NCBI GenBank assembly: GCA_017499595.2
Contig: CM039004.1
Location: forward strand, 372,001 to 436,000
Reading direction: 5' to 3'
DNA: 64,000 bases
From: Psilocybe cubensis
Lineage: Eukaryota
Program-made: the position numbers and the translations under genes
Part shown: in pieces, positions 12,366 through 19,438 of the stretch
Layout of the letters: every line of letters starts with the position of its first letter
Numbering within the stretch: the first letter of the stretch is position 1
The notes under the pieces: model-generated
Database searches by the model: none
The model's input: only the letters and a program-made list of their open reading frames with translations
Told to the model about the DNA's origin: nothing

Positions 12366-12769
12366 CATGTCGTTTGCTTGGACATTTCCAAGGGTATTTT
12401 GCACCTGCTTTGTGGTATTAATTTATTCCAGAGCCTGAGGCCTTCAGGCCTGATCAGTGAGCCCAGTAATGTATGTATCTGCGTGTTCTATATCTATTTT
12501 ACATTTATTACATATCAAAATTATACCTTTCATTGGTCACCGTTGCATCCGACTGAGTTCTACTTCTTGGATAGTCTACAGACTGTGGTGCCGCTTTATT
12601 TAATTATAATACTGAATAGTTGTGATCTATGGTTTTGTTGACATTAAACCGCAATTGTACAGCCTGCTAACGAGTACCAAGACAACATAGCACAGCCTCA
12701 GAAAGGGTTAAAGGGCGGGCCATCACATCACAAGTTAACAATTCATTATTCTGACGATCATCAACTCCA

Positions 12770-14208
12770 ATGGAGGTCATCGCAGCTGCCACAACAGTCT
12801 GTGCTCTATGCAAGAGCATTGTGCAATGGATCGACCAACTAGTGCAAAAGGAGCAGCTTTTGACCCAGATATCGTCGAGCGTAATGCAGCTATATCACAT
12901 TCTCAAGCCATTCTCCTCTGAATCATTCAAAGGAAAGGGTGAGGCTGAATTGTCGCAGGCAATCCTGGCAGTAGGCGATGCATTGCAGAGAACAAAAGAG
13001 CACCTTGTCGTATGGAAGTATAAGAAGGCAAAACGCATCATGGCTTTTGTCAACCCTGGATCCCAAATTCAGCAGTTGCAGGAAGACCAGAAGCATATCA
13101 ACAACCAGCTCATCATCTTGCTCACAGCCATGGCTGCAGTTGGCTACTTCCGCGATCACTCGAACGATTCGCAAGGGACATCCAGCAGCATAGAGTCGCC
13201 TAGCTTCTCGGATGTATCCACAAAAACCTTGGTTCCTCAGATGGAAGAAATGGGCGATGGAGATGCGAAGGCGTTCTGGAGGGATTACATTGGCGTTAAG
13301 GTTCTGAGAAATCTTCACTCACTTTGAGGAACATACTAATGACAAATTTTGATAGGTCAACTTTGTGACCGTCGATGTTTTTCAGTCTAGATTGCAATCT
13401 TGGTATCAAGAATTCAAAGGCAACATTCCCCAGAGAGCTTCTGAACGCATGATCATGCGATTGGACGAATTCAACTGCGGAGGAATAACACCATATAACC
13501 TTGATTTAGCGTTGGAAGGGAGTACCCTGAAAGAATTTGTTGAAAATTATATCAAAGGTATGTCGCGATATTTTCAATTGTGCTTCAAACTTACAAGATA
13601 TTGGTAAAGGGGAAAAACCGAGGTCATTTCAGTATTCAAGAACCCGCAATACATCTACCAGCACTACTGTCAATGATCAAGCATTACGTGTTCCTCTTCT
13701 GGTCTGGATAGATGATTGTCCAGAGAACAATGTATATGAAGTATCTAAAGCTCGTCTATCTGGAATCATGGTTGTCGAGCTTTCTTCGACCGCCATCGCC
13801 AAGGCTTGGATTGAGGAAAACTTAGGTTTAACTTCAATTTCACTTAGCATGCTAACAACTAATGCATCATATATACTCCCAACAGACTTTTTACTTGACA
13901 ATGATCATCCATCAACTCTTCGATTCATTTCGGACAACGTTCGACTAGAAAGTACTAGTCCTAACTCAGGACCATTTCTAAATCAAACTGCAGGGGAAAA
14001 CTTCCTTCAGTATCTACGTGCGCGGTTCTTTGAGGCCCCTGTCCTTATATACACGGGGGCCAGTGTTGTAACCACACGCTATGTCTGTTCTTATGATGCA
14101 GCGGGATCTACGACCAACCTCGGTACTTGTTTGAGGTATATCCTGGGTCTGGCTTCTGGAGATAGTGATGATACATTTTGGAGAGGGTTTAACGTCAGTA
14201 AATCCTAG
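12770..14208 (+). CDS. Multidomain protein: N-terminal MLKL/Cbl-N-like helical bundle + Cbl-type EF-hand-like domain + CheY-like receiver domain (4 exons)
   Basis: Exons ~12770-13300, 13356-13557, ~13610-13825 and 13886-14208. The N-terminus forms amphipathic helices (MEVIAAATTVCALCKSIVQWIDQL...). The middle reads DAKAFWRDYIGVKVNFVTVDVFQSRL...RLDEFNCGGITPYNLD. The C-terminus reads LLVWIDDCPENN...RFISDNVR...AGENFLQYLR...PVLIYTG. Confidence 0.75.
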
Positions 14209-14569
14209 ATGTTGCAATACTCTGATAGTGTGGCAGTGAAGTCATCATTCAGCAAAGTATCGTCGCCCTTAGACTGCCGTCGCCCATTTGTATGCTCTGA
14301 CAACAGCGTCGAAGGTCAAAGGCAAGCATTTAATCACGGGTATGGTAGACTATAAGTAGCATATTATAATGTCGATTCATTTTTCTTTTAGCCCAATTTA
14401 CAGTTCTAACAACAGTGCTCTTCGCATCAAGGCATGTGCAGAGAGAGAGACAGCTGTGGGAATCGGGCGGGTAAAGGGGTACCTTGGGTCTAGTGCTGTG
14501 ACTCATCTTTTCTGACTCCCACGCACACTCTTACCCAGTTCATCATCCTCTGCGAGCTTGCTTTACACC

Positions 14570-16437
14570 ATGCGGAACAAGGCTGAGCTCAGTCCCTATC
14601 CCCGAGACCAATATCAGCACTGCATCCCAAGATTCATTCTACGAAATTTTTTGGAAGGACCTCGTAGCTTCATGTATGTTGTAAAACTAAAATTTCTTGG
14701 AGCAATGACTGCTGAAGACACAGCTGATCTGCATCTATTGCTACCAGTACAAAACGTGATCGACTCAAGTTGTTTCGCAAAATAAAAAAGAAAGGGGAAG
14801 AGCATGATACCGAACGGATATCGTTCTATCACATACCTTCAGGTATGCTGTACAATCGGCCAATAGCGAAGGTGTATGGATCCACAAATCTCTACCGCGA
14901 CTTCTCAAACCCCATAGACGTTGACCACCTGGAACGTCAATTTTCAAAGCTAGAGCAAGAAGCTTCGCTAGCAATAAAGGCCATATATCGTGGGATCCAT
15001 CAACAAATGTTTACTTTATCACGGAAAGAGCTTGCTACGGTGCGAAAGTTCATTTTTCTGATGCACTTTCGCAACGATGCGGTTTCATCGACCTATTTCC
15101 ACGAGAACAATCCTACCAATGCACCTCTCGTTGACTGGATTAGAAAATACAAAGAGACTCGACAGCTCAAAACCGACGTCGACGTTTGGAAGGATGGTCT
15201 AAAATACTACCTCAATACTCCACATCACGAGATAGTCGCAACCGGAGAGCGACTCCGGGAAAGGTACGGGGAATTCAGGCTCCAAGAGATGCTGAGGAAA
15301 CGACTCGACCCAGACATCGAGGAATGGTATGCCATTGACTACGAAAGTCTTGCGAATTACTTCTTCCTCGGTGTCTGGGAAGCGGCGGACGACTCTGACT
15401 TTGTGTTAAGTGGGAATGGATTTGGGCTATGGGAGGGGTTGATATATGGAAGTCCGGGGGCCCATAGACTTTATGTCGTGAGCCCCCGGATCGTCATCGT
15501 TCTTCGCCGGACCTTCCTCCACCAACCACACTCTAATGACCCTTCTATCCTTTACAGCTGTCTTGCTGATATCCCCATTATGCCTCCGAACATCAACTAC
15601 GCAGACCCCAGTGCTTTTGAAAATCTCGACGACAGCGATCCGACACTTTTGAGGAATATACGCGACGCATATCGATGCTCAGAGCAGGCCCAGAAGGACC
15701 AATTTACGTTCAGAATTACCAAGCTATCGAAAGCTCAGACATACGCCGTCAATGAGGTAACAATGATGAACGCTAATCTTCATCCCGAGGGCTCTCTCAC
15801 CTTCGCCTCTCCTGCAGCAATGCTCGACACACTCCAGTTATATATGGCCTCTCACAACACATTTCTTGGTGGGAAAAGAAGATTATTTATGCCACTTGTG
15901 CAACAGTTGGTTGGGCTCTGCTGCCAGGATTCTTCCCCAACCACTCAGGCGACGCTAGATTTTCCTTGGCACGCTGACACAGACGCTGATCGACAGCTAC
16001 ACATGTTCTTACGCTTCATAGTTGCCAATTCCGTTTCATTCCCTTCTTCATATAATCGTGCATACATTATCTATCATATGTCAACCGACATCCCCTCCCT
16101 TTCCAATCCAGTGTCAAGTAAAATCCGGGAGATTCAGAGAGAAGCGGTTCAAGCTCTCCGGCATATCCTTGATCCACCCCTTCTTCCCTGCGCCAAATCA
16201 GACTCTTCTCTTTCCCCGCGAAATATTGTGGAAACTCTACCCAACGACGAATCAGAGTTATTCTTCTCGTTAGTTGGCCATCAGATGAACCACCTGCAGG
16301 TTGGCAAATACACCAACGACATTCTGGCCAATATTATCTATGAGGCTTCAATTATTGGAGTCACTCATTGGATTGCTAATAATAGGCCTGACGTGCTCTT
16401 TGAACTGGTAGGAAATTGGGCCACTGTAGTAGCCTAA
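14570..16437 (+). CDS. DUF4238 domain protein (~600 aa, one intron 14674-14747)
   Basis: N-terminal QHCIPRFILRNF, then NLYRD, LERQFSKLE..AS, RKFIFLMHFR, FVLSGNG and VVSPRIVIVL. These match the DUF4238 motif pattern as I recall it (H.IP.F.L..F ... E..FS..E ... F..SD.P ... P.SP). Confidence 0.8.
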
Positions 16438-16891: not shown

Positions 16892-19438
16892 ATGAGACGG
16901 CATTTCTACGTCATCACCTTGACATTGCGATTTGCGCTCGCTCAATCGCCAACAACTATTGCTGCTCCAGGTCAACCCACGCATAAAGGCGAAACTGGGA
17001 AATTCGAACTGCTCGACAACAGCATAGTCAGTGCCCAGCAGGTGAATCTCGAATAACATTCTTGAACGATATCTATGGCTATTTATCATCGAATTGGTCG
17101 TATAACGCTTCAGCTATTTCTAGGGCGAGTCGATAAGGTGTATCTCATTGACAAAGTGGAGAATAACCCCAACCAAATCAACGGCCACCCGGCCTGGGCA
17201 TCAGGTATGTAGTACCCACCCGCCCTATTCCACACGTCCGGTCGACCCCAAATCTTATATGGTACATCAGAATACCGACTCTCAGATAATCGTCAAAGGG
17301 CACTGGACATCCCTACAAACACATTTTGCGCGGTAGGGTCCCCATCGCCTTTTCTATACAATTCTGACTTCGTTTAGGGCGGCAGCGTGCTTGGAAACGG
17401 AACGTGGATTAACGTCGGTGGCAATCAGGCAGTAACGAGTGGAGGAAATCCTGCAGCGACACAGGATGGGAGATCGGGGCCTTACATGGACGCAGATGGA
17501 CGTAGAATGTGTGTACGTCAACGGCGGATTTACAATTTTTGCTGAATTTCTTGTCTAGGATTCGGTCGGTTCAACGACCAAATTATCAAGAATTATTTGT
17601 GATATCTCTTTTTTAGCTTGCTGAATCCCTGCGACGGAGATGACTGTAGCTGGACTACGTCAGGATACCAGTCCGAGCAACGCTGGTACCCTACTTTGTG
17701 AGCATTTTCAATTCACTCCTATTTCAAGGACCAATACACCGATCAAGAGAAACTCTGGAAGACGGTAGCGTTATAATTGTAAGCACAATCAACTTTTTGT
17801 TGTTCAAATCCCCTCTTTACAACATGTATAGATTGGCGGAAGCAAAAACGGGGGATATCTCAACGATGCGGGTCAAACGAACCCAACATACGAATTCTTT
17901 CCCCCATCAGGACCCGCCATCCGCTCCAATTTCCTCGAAAACACCCTACCCGCCAACTTGTATCCCCTCACTTGGCTCCTTCCATCCGGTAAACTTCTCG
18001 TGCAGGCCATGCGGTCTACAATATTGCTAGATCACAAGACCAAGGTGGAAACACCACTGGACGACATGCCTGATGCCGTCCGAACGTATCCTGCGAGCGC
18101 TGGGACGGTCATGATGCCATTGACGCCCGCCAACAACTGGACGGCGACGATCATGTTCTGCGGCGGCTCTGATGTGCCTACAGACCAGTGCGTTACAGGT
18201 GGGTACAATCTCAATATTCTAACCCTTTACTTTGGAATTGTAGGTGGGCCTCGCCAAAGTTTGTCCCTATATCTCAGGCGGCTGCCACGTCCTGCGTGAA
18301 GATTGCCCCTGACGTGTCTGGGACATATGTCAACGACGATCCACTTCCAGAGCGCAGGTCCATGGCAAGCTTGATTCTGCTCCCAGATGGCAAGATATTA
18401 TGTCTCAACGGCGCAAAGACAGGTACGGTTTGTGTTGGCTGACACGGTGTATGCTGATGATACTTAGGAACTGCGGGCTACGGAACGACGTCATGGTCAA
18501 TTGGCCAGTCCTACGCCGACGACCCAGTCCTTCTCCCAGTGTTATACAACCCGGATGCCGCTGCAGGAAGTCGGTGGTCCAGCAACGGACTGTCTCCAAG
18601 CACCGTGCCCAGGATGTATCATTCCTCTGCAACCCTCCTCCCCGACGGTTTGTCTGCACTATTCCTTCAGTCTCTCTACACTCAACCTTTCCAACTACAG
18701 GGTCAGTGTTCGTATCAGGATCGAACCCCAACGCCGACTACGCCTCTGCCTCTGATGTCCTATTCCCAACTGAATATCGCACTGAACGGTTTTATCCCCC
18801 ATATTACAACGAGAGGCGGCCACAACCTAAAGGGCTTATAAACAAGCTCTCTTACGGAGGCCCTCCTTTTGAAGTTGTACTCGACGCTGACGATCTGTTC
18901 AAGGACGTTCAAAATGTTGACTCTGCAAGAGTGGTCGTTATCCGCACCGGTTTCTCGACGCACGCCATCGTGAGCCCTATTTCTTCAACTCTTTCTTTCG
19001 TCATTTGCGATTAATACTTGTCAGAACATGGGCCAAAGAATGATAGTCCTCCAATCGACGTACTCCGGGTTTAGCAACACAACCGCAGTCCTACACGTCT
19101 CACAAATGCCGCCTAACCCGGCGATATTCCCTCCTGGACCCGCATGGATGTTCCTCGTCGTCAAGGGTATTCCCTCAGTCGGCGTGCAGGTTATGGTGGG
19201 CTCAGGCAACATCGAGACGCAGAATATTCTGCCTATCGCTTCTCTCCCCGATGCGATGATATATCGCGCTGATGATACGACCTCGAGCTCGTCTGGTGCG
19301 TCTTCTACGAGTTCTGCGACAGATGGTCAGAGTCAGAAGACTAGTTCTGCTGTGAGATTGGATTGTTGGCTCGCTCTGCGCTGTCTGTCTTTGTGGTCTG
19401 TGGCTCTGCTGAGTCTGTCTCTGTTGCTCCGGGGCTAG
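16892..19438 (+). CDS. Copper-radical oxidase (glyoxal oxidase family, CAZy AA5_1, CRO2-like), secreted, probably GPI-anchored
   Basis: Signal-like MRRHFYVITLTLRFALA. Motifs TNTFCA, QRWYPT, LYPLTWLLPSG, RTYPAS, PRMYHSSATLLPDG, GFSTHA and PPNPAIFPPGPA. Ser/Thr-rich stalk followed by a hydrophobic C-terminus. Confidence 0.93.

Follow-up and report, generated by a model that had tools for sequence, protein, structure and literature searches.

The stretch of Psilocybe cubensis DNA analysed here, called the window below, is 64,000 nucleotides (nt) long (GenBank assembly GCA_017499595.2, contig CM039004.1, positions 372,001 to 436,000 of the forward strand; positions are counted from its first letter). 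It carries one copy of a gene whose predicted product joins a four-helix bundle of the MLKL type, a Cbl-type EF-hand pair and a divergent receiver-like domain (Table 1). An original prediction, made from the letters of this DNA, had proposed such a fusion of an MLKL/Cbl-N-like bundle, a Cbl-type EF-hand and a CheY-like receiver. The motifs that it quoted are all present in the product, namely DAKAFW at residues 165-170, WIDD at 277-280, ISDN at 331-334, IYTG at 371-374 and AAGST at 388-392, and no Lys follows the last strand.

The joined exons give 423 codons and one stop, which is terminal only. The 423-residue product is 69.5% identical across residues 1-418 to its closest named homologue, P0005, a 416-residue "hypothetical protein" of Psilocybe cyanescens. 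In public run X1, two abutting contigs cover 12755-14328 and lack exactly the three predicted introns; the splice joint across intron 1 was placed at 13298/13354, and a shift of 2 nt to the right fits equally well and yields the GT..AG intron at 13301-13355. Intron 3 is also absent from one X2 contig, whereas an X3 contig runs continuously through 13332-14691 and an X4 contig through 13332-14557 with introns kept. The GT..AG ends together with this contrast to X3 and X4 form the pattern expected of spliced transcripts, X1 and X2 being typed "RNA?" by a guess of the tool and no run being recorded as RNA. The acceptor of intron 2 is consistent with the "GEKP" of homologue P0009. The gene at 12770-14208 is thereby confirmed as real and its coordinates as exact. 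One X4 contig lacks 6 nt at 13668, in frame and within the linker between the EF-hand and receiver-like parts, which looks like a strain or allele polymorphism, and exon 1 shows several single-base differences in X3 and X4.

Table 1. Features of the gene for the three-domain protein and of its downstream neighbours in the window.
Feature	Position	Strand	Evidence or remark
Whole coding sequence, ATG to stop, MLKL_N-like / EF-hand / receiver-like protein	12770..14208	+	reading frames, exon join, X1 contigs
Exon 1, residues 1-177	12770..13300	+	translation; contig joint
Intron 1, 55 nt, GT..AG	13301..13355	+	skipped in X1 contig
Exon 2	13356..13557	+	translation, join, contigs
Intron 2, 52 nt, GT..AG	13558..13609	+	skipped in X1 contig
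Exon 3	13610..13825	+	translation, join, contigs
Intron 3, 60 nt, GT..AG	13826..13885	+	absent from X1 and X2 contigs; kept in those of X3 and X4
Exon 4, including stop codon	13886..14208	+	translation, join, contigs
N-terminal MLKL_N-like four-helix bundle, residues 1-133	12770..13168	+	
Cbl_N2-like EF-hand pair, residues 159-247; introns 1 and 2 inside	13244..13617	+	
EF-hand-like loop LDEFNCGGITPYN, residues 213-225, degenerate Ca2+ ligands	13461..13499	+	
Receiver-like (βα)5 domain, residues 268-418; intron 3 inside	13678..14190	+	
WIDD, Asp pair ending strand 1 (D279 and D280 of the window protein)	13705..13716	+	
ISDN, Asp ending strand 3 (D333), phospho-acceptor position of receivers	13927..13938	+	
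DUF4238 gene, two exons, directly downstream; context, not part of the protein	14570..16437	+	PF14022 E 1.6e-19
Glyoxal-oxidase gene	16892-19261	+	Glyoxal_oxid_N E 5e-16

The protein belongs to a large family. A profile built from 4 homologue sequences and run against 1.84 billion representatives recovered 436 clusters at E<=1e-3, of which 241 reach E<=1e-10 and 91 reach E<=1e-30. The members with names all come from Agaricomycetes and are called "hypothetical" or "uncharacterized" proteins; their genera are Psilocybe, Galerina (three genes), Agrocybe, Gymnopilus, Flammula, Collybia, Amanita, Mycena, Marasmius, Jaapia, Obba and Bondarzewia. Among them, a precomputed Pfam domain exists for P0127 alone. 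Pfam returned nothing but noise on the four exon translations of the window (SapB_1 at E 0.0013, under the cut-off, and DUF6719) and no useful match on full-length P0005, P0009, P0010 and P0011; the full-length profile of four homologues had 0 matches by sequence in the PDB, and the ESM Atlas gave no usable match for P0005. Pfam has no model for two of the three domains, and annotation therefore currently misses these proteins.

The protein modelled with AlphaFold2 for the fold assignments was P0005, a homologue, and not the product of the window gene itself. A run with 4 sequences only was unusable, with a predicted local distance difference test score (pLDDT) of 45; the run with 120 family sequences that was used instead reached a pLDDT of 89.6 and a predicted template modelling score (pTM) of 0.85, with three packed domains, and with these values the packing between the domains is also predicted with confidence. 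The N-terminus of the model consists of four long helices (2-23, 29-50, 58-87 and 96-137), the middle of a five-helix EF-hand-like part (166-245), and the C-terminus of parallel strands at 269-273, 293-297, 323-327, 363-366 and 383-386, with a helix after each strand and a hairpin at 331-343. Foldseek found nothing in the PDB at E<=0.001 for this model (best 6.2e-3). A second structural search compared the model with 48,161 representative chains without a pre-filter, and its 50 best rows (lowest Z 10.9) are those used below.

The predicted bundle can be superposed on the executioner domain of MLKL with a root mean square deviation (rmsd) of 2.2 Å, the MLKL alignment beginning at residue 4-5. 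Pfam MLKL_N (PF22215) matched 4 of 120 members at E<=0.01, and in one full-length member, P0048, residues 8-136 reach 38.4 bits where the cut-off is 27; P0048 is recovered by the 4-sequence family profile at E 6.8e-57 across positions 1-397. Sub-threshold matches to MLKL_N or PigL_N (HeLo-like N) lie in the same register in P0017, P0059, P0062, P0130, P0158, P0076, P0103, P0074, P0045 and P0141, and those to PigL_N fall at the extreme N-terminus in P0074, P0045, P0141 and P0059. The N-domain of P0062 in turn finds the window's own N-domain by BLASTP at E 1e-5. We place the N-terminal domain in the MLKL_N/HeLo-like superfamily (PF22215, PF17111), with the window's sequence itself under the Pfam threshold; the MLKL-type four-helix bundle of the original prediction holds up. 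Homology to these bundles suggests that the domain could disrupt membranes and kill cells.

The likeness of the middle domain to the solved Cbl EF-hand is modest but coherent in sequence and in fold. The best match to Pfam Cbl_N2 (PF02761) is in P0071, at 21.2 bits (E 4.5e-4) on the D-x-x-x-F-W...G segment, and no family member reaches the curated cut-off of 22 bits; P0115 matches at E 0.027, and exon 2 of the window has no match. When EF segments were isolated, 6 of 19 matched Cbl_N2 at E<=1, with a best value of 0.0013. In the PDB, a profile of the 19 segments found c-Cbl chains at E 0.0037 (profile positions 3-31), the Cbl entry 6bk5_A at 0.033 (positions 4-65) and Cbl-b at 0.06-0.1; with its second half (37-72) it matched EF-hand proteins of the ordinary kind. 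The two-domain structural fit to Cbl is loose (rmsd 4.6 Å), and the 50 best rows of the representative-wide structural search hold no Cbl chain. Taken together, the Cbl_N2 scores and the c-Cbl chains lend modest support to the Cbl-type EF-hand that had been proposed. Across 79 sequences, F170 (97%), W171 (98%), G176 (93%), D215 (98%) and G220 (97%) are conserved in this part. The loop keeps Asp at position 1 (77/78), Gly at position 6 (75/77) and Val or Ile at position 8 (73/77). Canonical Ca2+ ligands sit at loop positions 1, 3, 5 and 12. Of 77 sequences, 45 have Tyr or Phe at position 3. Position 12 is occupied by Ser, Asn, Thr or Arg, and its six commonest residues include neither Asp nor Glu. 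By the textbook ligand rule, the loop should not bind Ca2+ canonically, and the gating by Ca2+ that the original prediction had put forward was dropped because the loop is without the usual ligands.

The C-terminal domain is predicted to have a (βα)5 CheY-like fold, in line with the receiver fold first read from the sequence: receivers prevail in both structural searches and fill 46 of the 50 best rows of the representative-wide one. In the assignment of receiver positions, which was made through predicted secondary structure and not by residue-level superposition, D274 and D275 follow the strand at 269-273 of the P0005 model and D328 follows the strand at 323-327, each being 87% conserved among 82-89 sequences. 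The domain therefore has the Asp triad that marks receivers, an acidic pair behind strand 1 and a further Asp where strand 3 ends, and this triad is intact in the window protein. Of 98 near-complete instances of the domain, 86 are first or only copies, 69 of them with an intact triad, and 12 are duplicated later copies, of which only 3 have kept it. P0181, P0184, P0045 and P0185, from Mycena and relatives, have two or three receiver-like domains, and in them the later copies exchange the triad, for example for Ala-Thr-Gln, and still hold the Arg, Gly-Glu, Arg and Ser-Thr-Thr positions. The domain may thus have a second conserved surface with a structural or contact role. A further set of residues (R331, E333, N343, A346-G347 and R355) is 82-97% conserved and specific to the family, and positions 385-387 read Ser-Thr-Thr/Ser. 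The domain is most aptly described as a receiver-like domain, or pseudo-receiver, whose acidic pocket is conserved.

The three parts recur together in the family. Hidden Markov models of the parts, applied to 157 sequences, found the N-domain, EF and C-domain in this order in 53, and in the same order with split or doubled matches in another 13; the remainder are mostly fragments, duplications of the C-domain, or special cases with TIR or ART-like domains. Two or three tandem C-domains occur in named proteins of Mycena and Marasmius. A TIR_2 domain precedes the bundle at the N-terminus of P0127 (E 3.6e-9) and P0115, and in P0038, P0082, P0123 and P0186 the receiver-like domain is followed by a C-terminal region of ~300-450 residues. 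This region matches Pfam ART weakly (E 0.054), falls in ART/ADPrib_exo_Tox clusters in 20 of 30 Atlas matches (score 0.95) and shows by eye an Arg / Ser-Thr / Glu-x-Glu pattern; a profile of the fusion found no chain in the PDB by sequence. The region is NAD:arginine ADP-ribosyltransferase-like (NAD, nicotinamide adenine dinucleotide), and TIR and ART-like domains are both NAD-using types. The gene also occurs in tandem arrays on metagenome contigs, with 4 copies in L002 (1682-11355) and 2 each in L003 (699-4189), L004, L005 and L009. These copies are ~50% identical to the window protein, which suggests old or fast-diverging duplicates.

Directly downstream of the gene in the window lies a DUF4238 gene, whose 74-nt intron (14674-14747, GT..AG) is skipped in an X2 contig. 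A gene 60% identical to it follows the last family copy in both L002 and L003, and in P0034 a family member has been fused into one gene model with a DUF4238 gene (50% identical to the window's). The neighbour is a possible partner of the family protein. According to one preprint, a bacterial DUF4238 protein confers strong resistance to phage T7 (10.1101/2021.01.21.427644). PADLOC found no match for the window's DUF4238 protein, P0005 or P0038, and only weak TIR matches for P0127. Within the DUF4238 gene, the summed contig depth at 15240-15376 rises ~6- to 9-fold in the DNA-type runs X3 and X4 (657 versus ~70 and 145 versus ~25), and contig ends hang loose at 15261 and 15360; this suggests that a ~100-nt segment inside the gene is multi-copy in the genome. 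Synteny of the family gene with the glyoxal-oxidase gene farther downstream is also seen in L002, L004, L005 and L008, but there the glyoxal-oxidase gene stands on the opposite side, which points to local rearrangement between species.

In the reading that we propose, and to which we give a probability of about 50%, the protein is an MLKL-type effector that is autoinhibited and under the control of a pseudo-receiver. The bundle is joined to an EF-hand and pseudo-receiver instead of a nucleotide-binding and oligomerisation domain (NOD), and the predicted packing is tight; an autoinhibited executioner is the most economical reading. The protein would be cytosolic, with the MLKL/HeLo-type four-helix executioner bundle packed on a regulatory module that consists of the Cbl-type EF-hand pair, probably Ca2+-independent, and the divergent receiver-like domain; this compact form would be autoinhibited. 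A signal would be read at the acidic pocket formed by the Asp-Asp after strand 1 and the Asp after strand 3 and completed by the family-specific Arg, Glu, Asn and Ala-Gly-Glu residues. Candidate signals are a phosphoryl group, a metal-bound phospho-ligand or a small nucleotide-type messenger, whose binding would alter the hold of the module on the bundle. The pseudokinase switch of MLKL is an analogue of such control by a receiver pocket. The freed bundle would then oligomerise and attack membranes, leading to regulated cell death or defence that does not depend on NOD-like receptors (NLRs). HeLo, MLKL, RPW8 and Bell bundles are described as expelling an N-terminal helix and targeting membranes after oligomerisation, and such bundle domains are named as the commonest effectors of NLRs in fungi (PMC9815663). 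The fusions with TIR and ART-like domains are compatible with a role in conflict or defence, as are the tandem amplification and the adjacent DUF4238 gene, although they do not prove it.

Several observations weigh against this proposal. Position 367 after strand 4, where receivers have Thr or Ser, is Cys in 39, Thr in 31 and Ala in 12 of 84 sequences (the window copy has Thr), and the Lys after strand 5 is absent in all 28 rows listed; with no Lys and a variable Thr/Ser position, a classical phospho-switch is doubtful. Pfam Response_reg (PF00072) has no match at E<=10 in the window pieces and four homologues, nor at E<=0.01 in 120 members, and MLKL_N has none in the N-terminal piece of the window or in P0005. 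Profiles of the N-terminal and of the C-terminal part alone retrieved no MLKL, Cbl or receiver chain from the PDB by sequence; the former found designed helical repeats (E 0.08) and the latter one chance match. The loci with a DUF4238 neighbour also share the window's glyoxal-oxidase gene, and the adjacency may partly be plain synteny among related agarics. The other genes of the window are of common kinds (glyoxal oxidase, Vps10, GMC oxidoreductases, F-box, WD40), and the region is no obvious immune island.

Among the alternatives, a non-lethal scaffold or adaptor fares best, and we still regard it as unlikely. The protein would then be a rigid platform like the tyrosine-kinase-binding (TKB) domain of Cbl, with the receiver-like domain in place of SH2 and a bundle that never leaves the platform or meets membranes. 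The bundle alone fits MLKL (2.2 Å) far more tightly than the two domains fit Cbl (4.6 Å). It also bears the MLKL_N sequence signature, while the unbiased structural search put no Cbl chain among its 50 best rows, and fusions to TIR and ART-like domains and tandem amplification suit conflict genes better than a housekeeping adaptor. The Asp positions of the C-terminal domain could instead mark the output of a true His-Asp phosphorelay, in which the strand-3 Asp is phosphorylated by Ypd1 or hybrid histidine kinases and the family constitutes a fifth class of fungal response regulator. The known classes include Ssk1, Skn7 and Rim15. We consider such an output improbable: besides the missing Lys in the 28 rows, the position after strand 5 is mostly Thr (17/82) or Ser (15/82), with Lys outside the three commonest residues, and the Thr position varies, Response_reg does not match and no receiver chain is found in the PDB by sequence. 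The invariant R331, E333, N343, A346-G347 and R355 are not known as features of receivers.

The many conserved polar residues that crowd the C-terminal edge of the sheet (S299/T300, D274/D275, D328, R331, E333, N343, E348, R355 and S385), together with relatives fused to NAD-using TIR and ART-like domains, would also suit an enzyme, either an Asp-nucleophile phosphatase or phosphotransferase or a hydrolase of nucleotides or NAD derivatives, which the bundle and EF-hand would localise or regulate. That the top structural neighbours are all signalling receivers, and that duplicated copies are retained though the Asp triad is lost, which suits a regulatory or structural module, makes this quite improbable. 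Finally, a chance open reading frame, pseudogene or annotation artefact, for which the lack of a Pfam match on the window's own pieces might speak, is refuted by the matching spliced contigs, the 436 cluster representatives (241 at E<=1e-10), the confident fold and the intact frame with a single stop.

The combination appears to be undescribed, as the original prediction had supposed. Full-text searches of the literature retrieved no account of an MLKL bundle, Cbl-type EF-hand and receiver in one protein, and the family names are all "hypothetical protein". The main text of PMC9815663 does not contain the terms "Cbl", "receiver", "CheY", "EF-hand" or "DUF4238", although its supplementary tables may list such proteins. 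The parts are known folds; their wiring and a Cbl-type EF-hand outside Cbl appear to be new. To our knowledge, this would be the first Cbl_N2-type EF-hand outside Cbl proteins, and it bears on the origin of the Cbl TKB domain. If the pairing of bundle and EF-hand is homologous to that of Cbl, which we regard as speculative, the substrate-recognition module of the Cbl ubiquitin ligases of animals would share ancestry with a cell-death module.

Regulated cell death through bundles of the MLKL/HeLo type occurs in animals and plants as well as in fungi and bacteria. The fungal bundles are known as the heads of NLRs or as partners triggered by amyloids (PMC9815663). If the autoinhibited effector proposed here is correct, it would represent a new way to control an executioner, with a Cbl-type EF-hand as the link between the bundle and a receiver-like domain, in a widespread and expressed family, and the switch would be compact, consisting of three Asp residues and one domain. 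Speculatively, and with clearly less assurance, Agaricomycetes may possess an unrecognised class of MLKL-type executioners independent of NLRs, built on a Cbl-TKB-like switch in which a pseudo-receiver that senses a phosphoryl group or messenger takes the place of SH2. In this broader picture, the TIR and ART relatives and DUF4238 would mark a defence pathway based on NAD-derived or phospho-signals, as in bacteria.

Several known systems come close to this design. The fungal HeLo, HeLo-like and basidiomycete MLKL-like (BaMLKL) domains (HET-S, HELLP and the N-termini of NLRs) belong to the same superfamily of membrane-targeting bundles, and the present family likewise comes from a basidiomycete taxon. 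The known fungal forms, described in part by Wojciechowski et al. (2022; PMC9815663), are fusions to NACHT/NB-ARC NLR modules or carry a C-terminal amyloid motif, whereas a Pfam scan of 120 family members detected no NOD domain. BaMLKL has an extra N-terminal helix, "hG" (PMC9815663), which this family does not need because its MLKL alignment starts at residue 4-5. The TKB domain of Cbl (Cbl_N, Cbl_N2 and Cbl_N3) likewise sets a four-helix bundle before an EF-hand, but its third domain is SH2 and not a (βα)5 receiver fold. The family also differs from Cbl in having neither RING nor linker, an EF loop without Ca2+ ligands and a bundle with the MLKL_N signature, and Cbl_N has no Pfam match at E<=0.01 in 120 members; membership in the Cbl family was rejected since there is no SH2. 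Compared with CheY-like receivers (PF00072), including those of fungal Sln1, Ssk1 and Skn7, the Asp positions correspond; the Lys is absent and the Thr/Ser position is not conserved. We know of no RIPK3-type activator for the family. MLKL, the executioner of animal necroptosis, is regulated by a pseudokinase reached through brace helices, and in the family described here the corresponding regulator would be the EF-hand pair together with the receiver-like domain.

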